Positions 33,359 to 42,700 of a stretch of DNA of 64,000 nucleotides are shown piece by piece; position 1 is the stretch's first letter, and the number at the start of each line of letters is the position of its first letter. The position numbers were made by a program, and so were the translations under genes. The stretch is from Escherichia phage Nernie, in the sequence record PP925835.1, one strand, 5' to 3'. The notes below the pieces were generated by a model. That model had not been told where the DNA came from, searched no databases, and was given only the letters and a program-made list of their open reading frames with translations.

Positions 33359-34015
33359 ATGACTGTTAAGCATATTTCTTTTGATGTATGGAATACTCTT
33401 ATTACTGCTAACCCTTTGTATGCAGAAGAGCGCAACAAGGTTATTGCCGAGTATGCCTCTTGTTCTGAGGCAGAAGCAGCTACCGTATATAAAGAGGTAA
33501 AAACTCTCTTGGATTTAAAAGCAGAAAAAGGCATTTGTGGAACGTCTAAGGATGCTTGGGTAACACTTTCTACTCGTTTGAACATTGATCTTGATAAAGT
33601 GGATGGGTTAAAAAGAGATTGTTTAGCAATGTTTATAAAACATCCTCCAACATTGAATCCTGAACTTTGCAAGAAGTTGGAAGAGCTAAGTTCAACCTAC
33701 TCTTTGAGTATTAAGAGTAATACTAATTTTGTACCAGGTAGTTTCTTAGCTGTATATTCTGGTTTAACAAAATTACCATTCGACTTTATGCATTTTTCTG
33801 ACGAGTTTTGCTTGTGTAAACCAGATCCTAGGTTTTTTAAACTCTCTTTTGATGAAATGGTGACGTTTGATCTCGCACCAGAGGAGATTTTACACGTTGG
33901 AGATAGTTTGATTTATGATGGAAAAGCTGTTGACATAGGGATGAAGTTCTGTCATATTATTAATCCAGAAGACTTGTTGGCTAAACTTAAAAAAGAGGAA
34001 CTTGTTAATGCGTAA
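33359..34015 (+). CDS. HAD-superfamily hydrolase (putative phosphatase)
   Basis: Motif I-like ISFDVWNTL near the N-terminus and motif IV-like VGDSLIYDG near the C-terminus; start at MTVKH. Confidence 0.55.
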   Translation: MTVKHISFDVWNTLITANPLYAEERNKVIAEYASCSEAEAATVYKEVKTLLDLKAEKGICGTSKDAWVTLSTRLNIDLDKVDGLKRDCLAMFIKHPPTLNPELCKKLEELSSTYSLSIKSNTNFVPGSFLAVYSGLTKLPFDFMHFSDEFCLCKPDPRFFKLSFDEMVTFDLAPEEILHVGDSLIYDGKAVDIGMKFCHIINPEDLLAKLKKEELVNA

Positions 34016-34865
34016 TCAAATTCAACATTTTGCTAATACTTTTACTAACCTGAAGGAAGCAAAATTTAACATTGCAGATTATTCCAAACTAAAGTTTGGT
34101 AGTAACCAGGCAGCAAAAAGAATGGGGCGCATTCTGGCTGAAAGTTTCTTTTCTAAGTATGAAGAACGACTGGTAAATGAAAGTTTTGTTGTTATTCCAT
34201 CTCCATATAACTATGTGAAAAATGCAGCTACAGTGTTATCTGAACATTTTGTAGATCACCTCAACTACCTAATCTCTATCAAAGGAGGTAAAGCAGTGGA
34301 GTGGGATATCGTTCATCGTAAAGTGAGCTATATTAATGATTATGGATTTCTTAGCAAAGAAGATCGTAAGGCTTTGATCGATGGTGACACTTTCTCTATC
34401 AATCGTGATTTCTGGGGTAATAAAACTCTGATTTTCATTGATGATGTTAATATTACAGGTACACACGAAGAAAAACTTATTGAAATTTTAGACAAAGAAG
34501 GTGTTGAAAACGATACGTTTTTCCTGTACTTTGCAAAGTATGAAGGTACAGAAGCCAACACCGAAGCTGCACTTAACTTCAACTATATCAATAATCTGGC
34601 AGCTTTTATTAAAATGATTAAGCAAGAAACTGATGCTAAATGTTTGGTTCGTCCTATTAAGTATCTAATGAGTCAAAGCGAAGTTGATTTTAAAATTGCA
34701 CTTTCACAACTTCCTTTGTATTATGTAGAACAACTGTTCTTTGGTTGCCTTGCAGAAGGTTACAATAACATTGAAAAATACAAAGAGAACTTTGATTTCC
34801 TACGTCAATTTTTTGAAAGCAACATTATCAACAAACCTAATGTTAAAGGGGATTATTATGTCTAA
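34002..34865 (+). CDS. phosphoribosyltransferase-like protein
   Basis: PRPP-binding signature LIFIDDVNITGTHEE (hydrophobic run, DD, T/G-rich loop). Confidence 0.55.
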   Translation: MLMRNQIQHFANTFTNLKEAKFNIADYSKLKFGSNQAAKRMGRILAESFFSKYEERLVNESFVVIPSPYNYVKNAATVLSEHFVDHLNYLISIKGGKAVEWDIVHRKVSYINDYGFLSKEDRKALIDGDTFSINRDFWGNKTLIFIDDVNITGTHEEKLIEILDKEGVENDTFFLYFAKYEGTEANTEAALNFNYINNLAAFIKMIKQETDAKCLVRPIKYLMSQSEVDFKIALSQLPLYYVEQLFFGCLAEGYNNIEKYKENFDFLRQFFESNIINKPNVKGDYYV

Positions 34866-35574
34866 TAAAGTAATGACTTTCGGAGATCCTATCACCAATA
34901 TTACAGAAAAAGATTTTGGGCGTGTAGCAACAGATAAAGATGGTGTCTTAAGAATTCGTGTACAAGGTATTACAGCACAGGATGAATATGCTGTGTATGT
35001 TTCAGGTCTTAACTATATTGATGATCGCATTACACAAAACTTTGCACTGATCGGTGGTGTAGAGAAAATGTACTGGGAAGATGAAATTGTAACAAGTTAT
35101 CCAGCAGGTATCATTGAGGTATACGGTGATCTTTTAGCAGCAGCCGAGAGAGGCGATATAGACGCTATAGCACACTGCTGTAACTGTTTTTGCACTATGG
35201 GTAGTGGTATTGCACCAAAAATTAAAAGTAAGTGGCCTGGTGCGTTTAAAGCAGATTGTGCCACTAAACGTGGTGATTATAAAAAATTAGGTACGTTTAC
35301 CAAACATATAGAAAACAATTTGACAATTTATAATTTATATGGACAATATGGTTATAGTCGTCGTGAGGAAGGTAAGCGTGACCTGAATTATGAAGCTATC
35401 TACAATGCGTTAGATAGTATGGGAGACGATGTTGTATCTTCAGGCGGTAAAATTGTAGGTTTACCAATGCTTGGTTGTGGTTTGGCTGGAGGTTCTTGGA
35501 ATATTGTAAAACTTATGATCGAAGAAACTCTAGTAAACAAAGGTTTAAATGTAATTGTTTACAAACTGAAATAA
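34858..35574 (+). CDS. macro-domain-like protein (ADP-ribose binding/processing)
   Basis: DAIAHCCNCFCTMGSGIAPKI and GLPMLGCGLAGGSW resemble the NAAN...GGGVAGAI and FPxIgTGvyGyP macro motifs; start at MSNKV overlapping the upstream stop. Confidence 0.5.
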   Translation: MSNKVMTFGDPITNITEKDFGRVATDKDGVLRIRVQGITAQDEYAVYVSGLNYIDDRITQNFALIGGVEKMYWEDEIVTSYPAGIIEVYGDLLAAAERGDIDAIAHCCNCFCTMGSGIAPKIKSKWPGAFKADCATKRGDYKKLGTFTKHIENNLTIYNLYGQYGYSRREEGKRDLNYEAIYNALDSMGDDVVSSGGKIVGLPMLGCGLAGGSWNIVKLMIEETLVNKGLNVIVYKLK

Positions 35575-35583
35575 GGAGAAAGT

Positions 35584-35790
35584 ATGGCAGGTGTTTTAGC
35601 AGTATTAGGTTGTTTTATTGTTGTGTTCTTGATTGTGTTAATCCCTAGTTGGCTACTGCTTTTAGCATACAATTATATGATTGACATTATCGGCTTAGAC
35701 TGGCATCATGTTCCTGTAACGTTTTGGAGTGTAGTCTGTGTGACGTTCATTCTTGCGGTACTCCGTGGTATCTTTCAATCTAACAAATAA
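35584..35790 (+). CDS. small membrane protein
   Basis: 68 aa with two hydrophobic helices; GGAGAA ribosome-binding site. Confidence 0.5.
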   Translation: MAGVLAVLGCFIVVFLIVLIPSWLLLLAYNYMIDIIGLDWHHVPVTFWSVVCVTFILAVLRGIFQSNK

Positions 35791-35804
35791 GAGAGGATCT
35801 TTAT

Positions 35805-40973: not shown

Positions 40974-41235
40974 ATTTAATATCAAAGACGACAAATCAGA
41001 TGAACCTAAATGTTTTGGAGAACTTGACACAGGTGATACATTCGTATATTATGTTGCCTATCAAGATGCTGGTTTAGATACGTTCAGAAACTTAGTGTTT
41101 ATTAAGGTTAATACAAACCAAGCAATGTGTCTTAACGGTTCACAAAGAGGTCAACTTAACTGTATTTTATATGATACAGAAGTGGTAGAAGTGGATTTAG
41201 AAGTTACTAACATTACAGTCAGAAAGGAGAAATAA
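40966..41235 (+). CDS. hypothetical protein
   Basis: 89-aa ORF. Confidence 0.45.
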   Translation: MLKFNIKDDKSDEPKCFGELDTGDTFVYYVAYQDAGLDTFRNLVFIKVNTNQAMCLNGSQRGQLNCILYDTEVVEVDLEVTNITVRKEK

Positions 41236-41236
41236 T

Positions 41237-42031
41237 ATGTCCAATAAAATCAGTCTTAAAAAACGTCAAGAAACTCTTACTGTATCCCTGCGTAAGAAAA
41301 AGATTAACGATGTTGTTCTTCGTGTAGGTAGCGCCTTAGATATTTCGGGTAGTATGTGTGAGCTGTATCGTGATGGCACTGTTAGCGATTTTGTAGGTAA
41401 ACTGCTGCCGTTTGGTATGAAGTTTGATGATAATGCACAGATTGACATGTGGGCTTTCAATAGTTCTTCTTTTGAACTGCCTCCTGCAACGGCTGATGTG
41501 TATGATGATTATGTCGGCTCTTGCATGTCTAATGTTTGCATCAACGGTGGTACTGCTTATGCTCCAGTAATGCAAGAGATCTATGATACATACTTCGGTA
41601 GTGTACCTATGAAAAATATTACACGCGAAGTCGTTGAGTATGAAGAAGTTCCGGCTAAAGGTTTCCTTGCTAAACTAACTGGTAAAAAAGAACTTGTAGA
41701 AGTAACACGTACTGTTGTAGAACAGGTTGTAGATACTGATGCACAAGTTGATCGTACTCCTGCAATGATTTTCTTCCAAACTGACGGGGAGAACATGGAT
41801 ACTTCAGCAGTACGTAGCTTACTGAACAAACACCGCAATACGCCTGTTTACTGGTTTATGGTTGGTGTAGGTAATGCAAACTTTAAATTCCTGAAAGACT
41901 TGGCAAAAGAATACGATAATGTTGATTTTATCGGTATTGCAGATTTGTCCTTGTCTGACGAAGAACTTTACGATAAACTGCTATCCGAAGAGTTTGGTGA
42001 GTGGGTTAAAAAATTTGGAGCAAAAGCGTAA
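41237..42031 (+). CDS. von Willebrand factor A (vWA) domain protein, TerY-like
   Basis: MIDAS motif LDISGSM, later IFFQTDGEN; N-terminal ISLKK...LTVSL resembles the TerD N-terminus. Confidence 0.55.
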   Translation: MSNKISLKKRQETLTVSLRKKKINDVVLRVGSALDISGSMCELYRDGTVSDFVGKLLPFGMKFDDNAQIDMWAFNSSSFELPPATADVYDDYVGSCMSNVCINGGTAYAPVMQEIYDTYFGSVPMKNITREVVEYEEVPAKGFLAKLTGKKELVEVTRTVVEQVVDTDAQVDRTPAMIFFQTDGENMDTSAVRSLLNKHRNTPVYWFMVGVGNANFKFLKDLAKEYDNVDFIGIADLSLSDEELYDKLLSEEFGEWVKKFGAKA

Positions 42032-42103
42032 AAAACGCTTGACTTTGTAGAAAAGATTAGTAAAATAGACAACGTAAATTAACAACAAAGGAGATAATAA
42101 ATT

Positions 42104-42700
42104 ATGACTCAGAAAATTTCCCTGAAAAAAGGTTCTAGCGAAAAAGTTTCTCTGAAAAAGATTGCACCAGCACTGAAACGCATTCGTCTGGAATTCTCTT
42201 GGAAATCTAACGAAAAACTGGATCTGGATGTTAGTGCTCTGATTTGCCGACACAATGCATCTGGTCTGCCGGAACTGTTGTCTCCTCGTCACCTGGTGTG
42301 CTACGCGCAGAAATTTGATCCTGAACGTTCTACTTTTGCAGGTGAAGATGTTCGTGATGGTGTAGGACAGATGGAGCAGATTGATGTTACACTGGATAAT
42401 ATCTCTGCTGAAGCACAGGAAATTGCATTCGTAATTACTATTGATGACGAAACGGGTAAGAAACGCCTTGGTCACGCTACCGAAGGTTTCCTTAAAATCT
42501 TCGATGATGAACGTAATGTTGAACTGCTGGACTTTGACTTCTTGGCTCCAGAACTTGCAGGTAACACCATTTGCCACGTTGCCTCCCTGGTGCGAGAAGA
42601 TAGCGAATGGAAACTGAAAGCGTATGGTGTGGGTAAAGCTGGGCTTGACATTTACGATGTAGTTAAAGCGTTTGGCGCTGGCGACGATTGGTTCGAGTAA
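42104..42700 (+). CDS. terD: TerD-domain protein
   Basis: ISLKKG..VSLKK N-terminus, DLDVSAL, GEDVRDGVGQMEQIDV, DFLAPELAGNT, WKLKAYGVGKAGLDIYDVVKAFG follow the TerD block order. Confidence 0.75.
   Translation: MTQKISLKKGSSEKVSLKKIAPALKRIRLEFSWKSNEKLDLDVSALICRHNASGLPELLSPRHLVCYAQKFDPERSTFAGEDVRDGVGQMEQIDVTLDNISAEAQEIAFVITIDDETGKKRLGHATEGFLKIFDDERNVELLDFDFLAPELAGNTICHVASLVREDSEWKLKAYGVGKAGLDIYDVVKAFGAGDDWFE

Follow-up and report, generated by a model that had tools for sequence, protein, structure and literature searches.

A compact Ter gene block with a linked HAD-phosphoribosyltransferase pair in Escherichia phage Nernie

What is a set of genes resembling bacterial tellurite-resistance (ter) loci doing in a virulent phage of Escherichia coli? 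The question is raised by a block at positions 33359-42700 of the window, the whole 64,000-nucleotide stretch of Escherichia phage Nernie (PP925835.1) that was analysed here. A first-pass annotation had described in this block a HAD hydrolase, a phosphoribosyltransferase (PRTase), a macrodomain protein, TerC, TelA, a vWA protein and TerD. The phage, a virulent myovirus with a genome of about 146 kb, infects E. coli. Ter loci occur widely among pathogens, and their association with resistance against tellurite, colicins and phages goes back decades; we know of no molecular mechanism for any Ter system. Whelan et al. reportedly tied these systems to phage inhibition in 1995, the colicins concerned being pore-forming, and Anantharaman, Iyer and Aravind are said to have described the Ter system in 2012 as a complex of TerC, TerD, TelA and vWA proteins with linked biosynthesis of a nucleoside-like compound.

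The gene set is already known, both from existing annotation and from a published comparative-genomics proposal, so the novelty implied by the first-pass annotation does not stand. GenBank relatives label these genes as tellurite resistance protein, TerC, vWA, TerD family, PRTase, HAD and macrodomain. Iyer, Anantharaman, Krishnan, Burroughs and Aravind reported in 2021 that Ter components occur in jumbo 'and certain other related smaller tailed phages', described Acinetobacter phage vB_AbaM_ME3 as having a nearly complete Ter system, PRTase and HAD included, and proposed that phages use such systems in competition with superinfecting phages, that is, for superinfection exclusion (PMC7824862). 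The genes terC, terD, terF and telA have also been reported, with role unknown, in phiPsa374-like phages (PMC9796965). What is added here is the finding that in 29 of 30 further loci a HAD gene lies directly 5' of a gene of the PRTase_3 family, and that the pair travels with Ter genes in several unrelated phage lineages and in bacterial operons. What makes the block valuable is not the discovery itself; it is a Ter system pared down to a minimum and amenable to experiment. It defines a minimal parts list in a virulent coliphage (TerC, TelA, a TerF-type vWA protein, one TerD, and HAD with PRTase_3) and provides a simple system for knockout and complementation in E. coli K-12 phages (Bas60, Bas62 and relatives) that are easy to handle.

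Gene content and conservation of the block

Profile hidden Markov model searches recovered all seven domains named above, and the motifs that had been quoted for them (FDVWNTL and VGDSLIYDG in the HAD protein, LIFIDDVNITGT in the PRTase, EKSLSVDNLVVF in TerC and DISGSM in the vWA protein) lie within the corresponding genes of Table 1. TerC matched PF03741 with an E-value of 1.2e-38 (133.1 bits, cut-off 27.8) and the NCBIfam model TIGR03718, 'TerC/Alx family metal homeostasis membrane protein', at 322.8 bits against a cut-off of 246.4. For TelA, the match to PF05816 (E = 5.1e-34, 118.3 bits, cut-off 30) covers 318 of the 332 profile positions. The vWA protein matched PF10138 (E = 1.2e-38, 133.8 bits, cut-off 29.4), and the residues DxSGS, GGT and TDG of its metal-ion-dependent adhesion site (MIDAS) are intact in all 14 orthologues. 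TerD matched PF02342 (E = 5.1e-28, 98.2 bits, cut-off 25.3) and aligned over its whole length (residues 5-180) with Klebsiella TerD in PDB entry 2kxt (E = 8.6e-15). The block thus holds the parts of a Ter stress-response system: TerD, TerC, TelA and a MIDAS-bearing vWA protein of TerF/TerY type, with a linked PRTase and HAD. Homologues of TelA occur in 245 phage records and homologues of the TerF-like vWA protein in 215. The Pfam match of the vWA protein is broken in two by an insertion of about 35 residues (about amino acids 125-165), present only in Stephanstirmvirinae orthologues. The canonical Ca2+ loop of TerD is largely retained in several other phage lineages that carry HAD-PRTase_3.

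The HAD call is marginal in Pfam: the match to PF00702 (E = 1.2e-5, 26.2 bits) falls 0.2 bits short of the cut-off of 26.4, and NCBIfam gave partial matches to REG-2-like and type II HAD models. The call is backed by a full-length match to PDB entry 2om6 (E = 4.7e-8), in which motif I, FDVWNTL, is identical. It is also backed by 22 phage and two bacterial orthologues, which keep the Asp that acts as nucleophile as well as SNTNF, the (C/A/S)KP lysine and HVGDxxxxD. The adjoining gene encodes a PRTase_3 protein (PF15610, E = 1.1e-41, 143.5 bits). An alignment of 18 homologues, 44-81% identical to the window protein, has 59 invariant columns, and the loop that binds phosphoribosyl pyrophosphate (PRPP), LIFIDDVNITGT, fits the pattern hydrophobic-DD-x-x-x-TG-x-T, with D147, D148, T152, G153 and T154 invariant.

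A comparison of the PRTase_3 sequence against the PDB gave no meaningful match. The first-pass annotation had proposed structure prediction and a Foldseek search as checks; run on PRTase_3, these gave the core of a type I PRTase. The AlphaFold2 model (pLDDT 88.9, pTM 0.86) consists of this core and a C-terminal helical domain, so that the protein has what defines a type I PRTase, a PRPP loop on a Rossmann-like PRT core. Its nearest structures are the cores of 6-oxopurine PRTases (HGXPRT), ComF and PyrR, at TM-scores of just 0.3-0.5; because this is a generic type I core, the substrate of PRTase_3 cannot be inferred from it.

The 9.36 kb from 33341 to 42700 are 99.4% identical to Escherichia phage Antha and 98-99% identical to dozens of Justusliebigvirus genomes (phi92-like, Stephanstirmvirinae), among them phi92 and the BASEL phages JohannJBalmer (Bas62) and PaulScherrer (Bas60). 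The whole 9.4-kb block is kept at a coverage of at least 80% in 54 phage records. We measured selection as the ratio of non-synonymous to synonymous substitution rates (dN/dS) against phage BME3 (98% nucleotide identity). For the block the ratio is 0.07, with 158.5 synonymous and 41.5 non-synonymous differences; TelA shows 21 synonymous and 0 non-synonymous differences. Purifying selection on the block is strong. Values from the comparison with relative L012 (80% identity), and those of the open reading frame (ORF) of 187 amino acids in relative L009, were excluded because their alignments were invalid (partial matches or a missing gene).

Table 1. Genes and putative transcription signals of the Ter block, with dN/dS against phage BME3
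Feature	Position	Strand	dN/dS	Characteristics
Terminator-like hairpin	32958..32979	+		Arms AAAGGAGGC / GCCTCCTTT, loop GAAA, then T-run; 5' of block
HAD-superfamily hydrolase	33359..34015	+	0.08	Motif I FDVWNTL, motif II SNTNF, Lys in CKP, motif IV HVGDSLIYD
PRTase_3 (ComF-like type I phosphoribosyltransferase)	34008..34865	+	0.13	PRPP loop LIFIDDVNITGT, C-terminal helical domain
Macrodomain protein	34858..35574	+	0.16	Residues 85-237 of SCO6735/Bt_1257 class (ALC1-like)
Hydrophobic protein, 68 aa	35584..35790	+		phrog_16065; labelled 'holin' in phage BME3; same position in Phapecoctavirus
ORF, 82 aa	35805..36053	+		phrog_17459; not in Phapecoctavirus SKA64
Sigma-70-like promoter match (TTGACT-16-TATAGT) and hairpin GCGGAGGATTGTCCTCCGC	36054..36112	+		Directly 5' of terC; consensus match alone
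TerC/Alx-family integral membrane protein	36131..37108	+	0.02	Motif EKSLSVDNLVVF
Hydrophobic protein, 68 aa	37148..37354	+		3' of terC; phrog_17591; weak DUF6693 match; kept in Phapecoctavirus
Predicted lipoprotein	37341..37931	+		Signal peptide, lipobox LLVGC, then low-complexity Q/S/G-rich part; phrog_21570
Protein, 283 aa	37967..38818	+		No Pfam match; phrog_27504
TelA-family helical protein	38887..39990	+	0	PF05816
Four small or medium ORFs	40004..41235	+		40004-40210, 40210-40410, 40410-40973, 40966-41235
vWA-TerF-like protein	41237..42031	+	0.02	Complete MIDAS site (DISGS...GGTAYAP...TDG)
Single-domain TerD protein	42104..42700	+	0.03	DLDVSA motif retained; Ca2+-binding loop degenerate (GEDVRDGVGQMEQ)
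GC-rich hairpin GCGCCCTTCGGGGCGC	42710..42725	+		10 nt past terD stop codon

Linkage of the HAD-PRTase_3 pair with Ter genes in phages and bacteria

We surveyed the pair in 24 loci from GenBank phages, IMG/VR contigs and metagenomic contigs, and in six further contexts reached via a bacterial homologue. HAD lies directly 5' of PRTase_3 in all 24 loci and in five of the six further contexts, the sixth having one gene between them; in Nernie the two genes overlap. TerD and vWA genes, together with TelA and/or TerC, lie at most 10 kb from the pair in 14 of the 24 loci, and these 14 include six lineages outside the Stephanstirmvirinae, with differing gene orders. Within the subfamily, Phapecoctavirus (65-81% amino-acid identity) keeps the order HAD-PRTase-Macro-small transmembrane protein-TerC-small transmembrane protein-lipoprotein-...-TelA-...-vWA-...-TerD-SleB with different filler ORFs. 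Klebsiella phage KP13-16, a more distant member, has TerC, vWA, two TerD, TelA and HAD-PRTase in a rearranged order and no macro gene. Caulobacter and Brevundimonas phages carry TerD, vWA and TelA homologues along with PRTase_3 homologues at 38-41% identity.

All six further contexts, bacterial and phage-like, put HAD-PRTase_3 with Ter genes. Three of them are bacterial. A 373-kb metagenomic contig (L028) with ordinary bacterial genes around the locus reads HAD-PRTase_3-TerD-TerD-TelA-DUF8226-TerC-PgpA; a contig of GCA_040403295 (L030), adjoining the gene for ribosomal protein L19, reads HAD-PRTase_3, two TerD, three vWA (one with TerY_C), PP2C, kinase and TerC; and in the third, three TerD genes precede HAD-PRTase_3 next to a P-type ATPase. 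The remaining three are phage-like contigs. On the Hymenobacter monticola plasmid NZ_CP094537 (L026) the pair is divergent from a string of three TerD, two vWA, PP2C, kinase and DUF475.

The bacterial operons (L028, L030 and NZ_CP094537) resemble the phage block in the overlapping pair, the motif FD(V/L)W(N/G)TL and the TerD, TelA, TerC and vWA neighbours. They differ from it in having two or three TerD genes where the phage has one, and often a TerY-type vWA with PP2C and a Ser/Thr kinase (the TerY-P triad, in L026 and L030) or DUF8226 with PgpA, whereas the phage block has a single TerF-type vWA and no kinase or phosphatase. Bacterial and phage PRTases are just ~35-42% identical. With the classical enterobacterial locus (terZABCDEF plus terWXY of IncHI2 plasmid R478, Klebsiella pK2044 and the E. 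coli O157 O-islands) the block shares TerC (47-49% amino-acid identity to the plasmid ter-operon proteins), the TerD domain (~30%) and the kind of vWA domain (PF10138) found at the C-terminus of TerF. That locus also has a linked, predicted nucleoside-like biosynthetic module that includes a HAD (PMC8115787). The phage set has no TerB and no array of TerZ/A/E paralogues, and it contains TelA, which lies outside terZABCDEF; the other genes of the 14-gene enterobacterial biosynthetic cluster were not found among the phage ORFs scanned. A plasmid search with PRTase_3 gave 17 matches (15 Rhizobium, one Sinorhizobium and one Hymenobacter) and found no homologue on the ~2,300-2,600 plasmids, mostly enterobacterial, that carry terD/terC.

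The likeness to bacterial ter loci on which the first-pass annotation had relied is real: bacteria do have HAD-PRTase_3 operons with TerD, TelA, TerC and vWA genes. This PRTase, though, is not part of the classical enterobacterial loci. Because bacterial operons link the pair to Ter genes and the plasmids with terD/terC gave no PRTase_3 homologue, the phage set represents an operon type that truly exists among bacterial Ter systems, and not the classical IncHI2/pK2044 locus. Capture of host alx was rejected as the source of phage terC because the DNA similarity seen in E. coli genomes is to terC (weak, in 1,010 of 5,426) and not to the ubiquitous alx. The yceCDEFGH operon of Bacillus subtilis, which we take to comprise three TerD genes, TerC (MeeF), YceG and TelA (YceH), has the core trio of TerD, TerC and TelA in common with the phage. 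It is chromosomal and stress-induced, and it differs from the phage block in having no PRTase/HAD pair and no TerF-type vWA.

Compared with the phage systems described in 2021 (ME3 and Caulobacter jumbo phages), the parts are the same: PRTase, HAD, TerD, TerC, vWA/TerF and TelA. Here they occur in a phage of E. coli that is not jumbo, and all in one 9.4-kb co-directional block, whereas in Caulobacter phage CcrColossus HAD-PRTase_3 lies 28 kb from TerD; the Nernie block also contains a macro gene and some ten small ORFs specific to its lineage, scattered among the other genes. The gene combination is far beyond chance, given its conservation in 54 records, the dN/dS of 0.07 and its recurrence in unrelated phages and bacteria.

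A richer arrangement occurs on the 391-kb phage-like contig k141_1155954 of ENA ERZ27247358 (L031), where positions 5505-16858 hold TerC, HAD, glucosaminidase, PRTase_3, a NAPRTase/NAMPT-like enzyme, an R2K ATP-grasp protein, TelA, DUF8226 and TerD. This may be a 'biosynthetic' Ter cluster hinting at chemistry related to nicotinamide adenine dinucleotide (NAD).

Candidate functions of the block

The first-pass annotation had suggested metabolite production, stress resistance during infection or anti-defence, each of which may be right. We tentatively favour the reading that the block is a phage-adapted minimal Ter system, inherited in the Stephanstirmvirinae, whose protein complex excludes rival phages or protects the envelope. 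During infection, PRTase_3 would condense a base-like compound with PRPP to a nucleotide, and the dedicated HAD would process it, most simply by removing the 5'-phosphate to leave a nucleoside-like ligand. The vWA protein and TerD are probable partners, as bacterial TerF unites both domains in one fusion protein (Pfam family definition); they would assemble with TelA under the membrane at TerC, which belongs to a family of divalent-metal exporters. The complex would alter the infected cell's envelope and ionic properties and so block the entry of rival-phage DNA, or membrane-damaging toxins, keeping the cell productive until lysis. The outcome would be superinfection exclusion or envelope protection, as Iyer et al. 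proposed in 2021 (PMC7824862). In bacteria, phage inhibition and colicin resistance require terC, terD and terZ, and deletion of terC in Klebsiella leads to larger plaques and to sensitivity to Zn and Mn (PMC12054061).

Several observations weigh against this reading. The position of the general acid/base in the HAD (Asp+2) is occupied by Trp in 20 of the 22 phage orthologues and both bacterial ones, as also in PDB 2om6, and by Tyr in one orthologue; because the general acid/base is missing, a role as a simple nucleotide phosphatase is uncertain. The Ca2+ loop of TerD is degenerate in this lineage (GEDVRDGVGQMEQ, compared with the canonical GDNxTGxGDGDDE). Pfam and NCBIfam gave no TerB match in the 20 ORFs scanned (31791-43957), and there is one TerD-domain gene, the classical multi-paralogue array being missing, so that the block is not a terZABCDEF system (TerZ, A, D, E, F array with TerB and TerC). 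Nor is it a TerY-P triad: PADLOC models of known defence systems matched none of the Ter proteins, the vWA, TerD and TelA proteins included, and no kinase or PP2C was found among the scanned ORFs. The pair is not beside Ter genes in about half of the phage lineages outside the Stephanstirmvirinae, so that it may have a separable role. Our literature search turned up no experimental work on a Ter gene of any phage, and it bore out the earlier remark that the module has no established function in phage.

Signs that the block is one transcription unit count for the favoured reading. The block is bracketed by hairpins at 32958 and 42710, the second of which is likely a bidirectional terminator that ends it, and a promoter-like site precedes terC (Table 1). 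From the promoter and terminator scans we kept just these three individual sites, as tentative. They are suggestive of a transcription unit and no more, because the scan counts do not rise above the shuffled background: over the whole region 11 terminator-like sites were found where 9.4 are expected in shuffled sequence, and the promoter count is likewise no higher.

A more specific version is possible, though we regard it as doubtful. It holds that the Trp-type HAD and PRTase_3 make a dedicated nucleoside that serves as ligand or switch of the vWA-TerD-TelA-TerC envelope complex, and that this minimal set of six genes lets virulent phages seal off the infected cell from competing phages or from suicide effectors of the host. 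If the dedicated-nucleoside reading is true, a first mechanism for Ter systems could follow.

Metal-ion management is an unlikely alternative. Here TerC, aided by metal-binding vWA, TerD and TelA, would mainly export or deliver Mn2+, Zn2+ and Ca2+ across the inner membrane, either keeping cytosolic metals suitable for phage enzymes or metalating exported phage proteins, and phage exclusion would not be the selected function. TerC/Alx genes are often under riboswitch control; an Rfam search of 28000-46000 at E ≤ 1 found no riboswitch, the Mn riboswitch included, which counts against the idea, as do the degenerate Ca2+ motif of TerD and the lack of any identified TerC-dependent phage metallo-exoenzyme. 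Metal management also leaves the linked HAD-PRTase_3 pair unexplained. In its favour, Mn/Zn export and metalation of secreted enzymes is the sole biochemically supported activity of the TerC family (PMC10550928, PMC12054061), Mn export and metalation by TerC-family proteins, including the B. subtilis member MeeF, having experimental support (PMC10550928). The TIGR03718 metal homeostasis model is matched above its cut-off, the MIDAS site of the vWA protein is intact, a signal-peptide-bearing SleB-like hydrolase adjoins Ter genes in four phage loci, and one bacterial HAD-PRTase_3/TerD context adjoins a P-type cation ATPase.

We also think it rather improbable that the block serves counter-defence, with the Ter proteins guarding the membrane against depolarising or perforating abortive-infection effectors or the HAD-PRTase_3 product disturbing nucleotide-based immune signalling. 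A likely anti-DarT2 macrodomain does lie within the block, bacterial ter loci give protection against colicins (PMC9796965, PMC12054061), and on the L031 contig a NAPRTase/NAMPT-like enzyme and an ATP-grasp protein accompany HAD-PRTase_3 and the Ter genes, a hint of NAD or nucleotide metabolism. However, beyond this subfamily the macro gene and the Ter genes are not inherited together, and the cassette is also found in ordinary bacterial chromosomes, where an anti-defence role makes little sense.

Least probable is a chance neighbourhood of two unrelated modules, in which HAD-PRTase_3 would serve nucleotide or nucleoside salvage or modification beside nrdDG, independently of TerC, TelA, vWA and TerD: the pair does occur without adjacent Ter genes in Rhizobium phages, CcrColossus, several metagenomic phages and the Rhizobium plasmid pRL10, and phiPsa374-like and other phages have Ter genes without PRTase_3, but the six further contexts all place the pair with TerD, usually in one co-directional string, the phage lineages with an unlinked pair still have vWA, TerD or TelA elsewhere in the genome, and a phosphate-removing HAD would counter nucleotide supply. 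Ten Rhizobium phage records, for example, carry a vWA-TerF-like homologue, which in RHph_TM40 lies at ~92 kb while the HAD-PRTase_3 pair of these phages lies at ~5 kb. In Rhizobium phage RHph_TM30 (4540-6867) a cytidylyltransferase-type gene comes directly after the pair and Ter genes are absent nearby; this favours separate modules.

The macrodomain gene and other genes of the region

The first-pass annotation had counted the macrodomain gene as part of the Ter-like set, and comparison with other phages speaks against this. Like KP13-16, five of the six Ter-bearing phage loci outside the Stephanstirmvirinae have no macro gene in their Ter clusters, and in the sixth it lies 7 kb off. Macro homologues occur in 2,981 phage records, T4-like tk.4 genes included, most of them without Ter genes. 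Going by their names, the listed phages presumably include Felix O1-like and rV5-like ones. The gene is probably not Ter-specific and a separate passenger within the block.

Residues 85-237 of the protein matched PF01661 (E = 7.1e-7) and, in the PDB, Bt_1257 (2fg1) and Streptomyces SCO6735 (5e3b) at 1e-15, human TARG1 at 6e-10 and DarG at ~1e-3. The DarG model of PADLOC matched the macro part at 2.2e-13; the NCBIfam DarG model (NF048014) reached 48 bits against a cut-off of 250, over model positions 4-147 of 338, which is the macro part only. In the 2fg1 and 5e3b alignments NLYGQYG stands opposite NMIGQHG, GCGLAGG is common to both, and the macro Gln aligns with Gln85 of SCO6735. The protein thus has the marks of the SCO6735/Bt_1257 subclass, a Gln where DarG has Lys80 and TARG1 has Lys84, and GCGLAGG where TARG1 has its Asp125 motif, the TARG1 side of the comparison resting on the OARD1 sequence. 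A C-terminal DarT-binding domain was not matched and no darT gene was found as a neighbour, so that the protein, though likely DarG-like in function, is not a member of the DarG antitoxins.

SCO6735, in which Gln85 is essential, efficiently cleaves the ADP-ribose that DarT attaches to DNA off the modified thymidine (PMC9411070). Orphan antitoxin-like enzymes of phages are established counter-defences (PMC11825919, PMC13309987): AdfM, a chimallivirus macrodomain, acts against DarT2 (PMC13309987), and AdfN, a NADAR enzyme, acts against DarT1 (PMC11825919). The phage macro protein resembles AdfM, DarG2 and SCO6735 in its ALC1-like fold, shares HxCN, GQ(Y/H)G and GCGLAGG with SCO6735/Bt_1257, and is, like AdfM, encoded by a stand-alone macro gene of a virulent phage. 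It differs from DarG and TARG1 in having Gln for the catalytic Lys and, from DarG, in having no DarT-binding domain; AdfM, DarG2 and SCO6735 lack its extra N-terminal region of ~85 amino acids. By this likeness the gene is most likely an anti-DarT2 factor that would strip DarT2-made ADP-ribose from phage DNA. Once it is set apart from the Ter genes, a separate activity against DarT2 is to be expected in this group of phages, which finds use in therapy.

The N-terminal ~85 amino acids (34858-35112) match no family, and the Phapecoctavirus orthologue is just 157 amino acids long. Because the macro query is covered at 80% or more in 69 of the 2,981 records, this extension appears restricted to this phage group. 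In Vibrio phage JSF10 (KY883654.1, 104490-105080) a macro homologue adjoins a ribose-phosphate pyrophosphokinase gene; the two could be a counter-defence pairing related to ADP-ribose or NAD.

All genes of the region lie on the + strand. The location beside nrdDG and replication genes that had been described is correct: nrdD/nrdG and an AAA ATPase lie 5' of the block, and a SleB-like cell-wall hydrolase, four glycosyltransferases and a primase/helicase lie 3' of it. The AAA ATPase (31791-32951, 386 amino acids) was rejected as a member of the set because it is absent from Phapecoctavirus. The SleB-like hydrolase (43448-43957; PF07486, 6.5e-20) has a signal-peptide-like N-terminus, and it is this gene that is found beside Ter genes in L001, L002, L004 and L017, four phage loci that diverge from one another. 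The four glycosyltransferase genes stand in a row at 44706-47900, and the BASEL annotation names two of them 'putative disaccharide synthase'. An ORF of 200 amino acids 3' of terD (42753-43355) was left out of the set, its homologues all being 95-100% identical and lineage-restricted; it gave a weak Cupin_3 match below the cut-off and a jackhmmer match in L017.

None of the ten ORFs interspersed between the domain-bearing genes matched a Pfam family above its curated cut-off, and they match PHROGs of unknown function. The predicted lipoprotein that had been noticed among them does have a lipobox, and it is partly conserved in Phapecoctavirus. PADLOC matches of the 283-amino-acid protein to Cas12g, at E~1e-3, were judged spurious. 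Phapecoctavirus keeps the ORFs at 40410-40973 and 40966-41235 5' of the vWA gene. The first of these, a Cys- and acid-rich protein of 187 amino acids, appears dispensable because it is missing from the near-identical IMG/VR relative L009.

Four GenBank records entered as 'Campylobacter phage' A150, A145, C3 and A110a (MG065639, MG065645, MG065656 and MG065689; host C. jejuni) are 98.5% identical to 33341-42700, and are probably mislabelled or contaminant assemblies.

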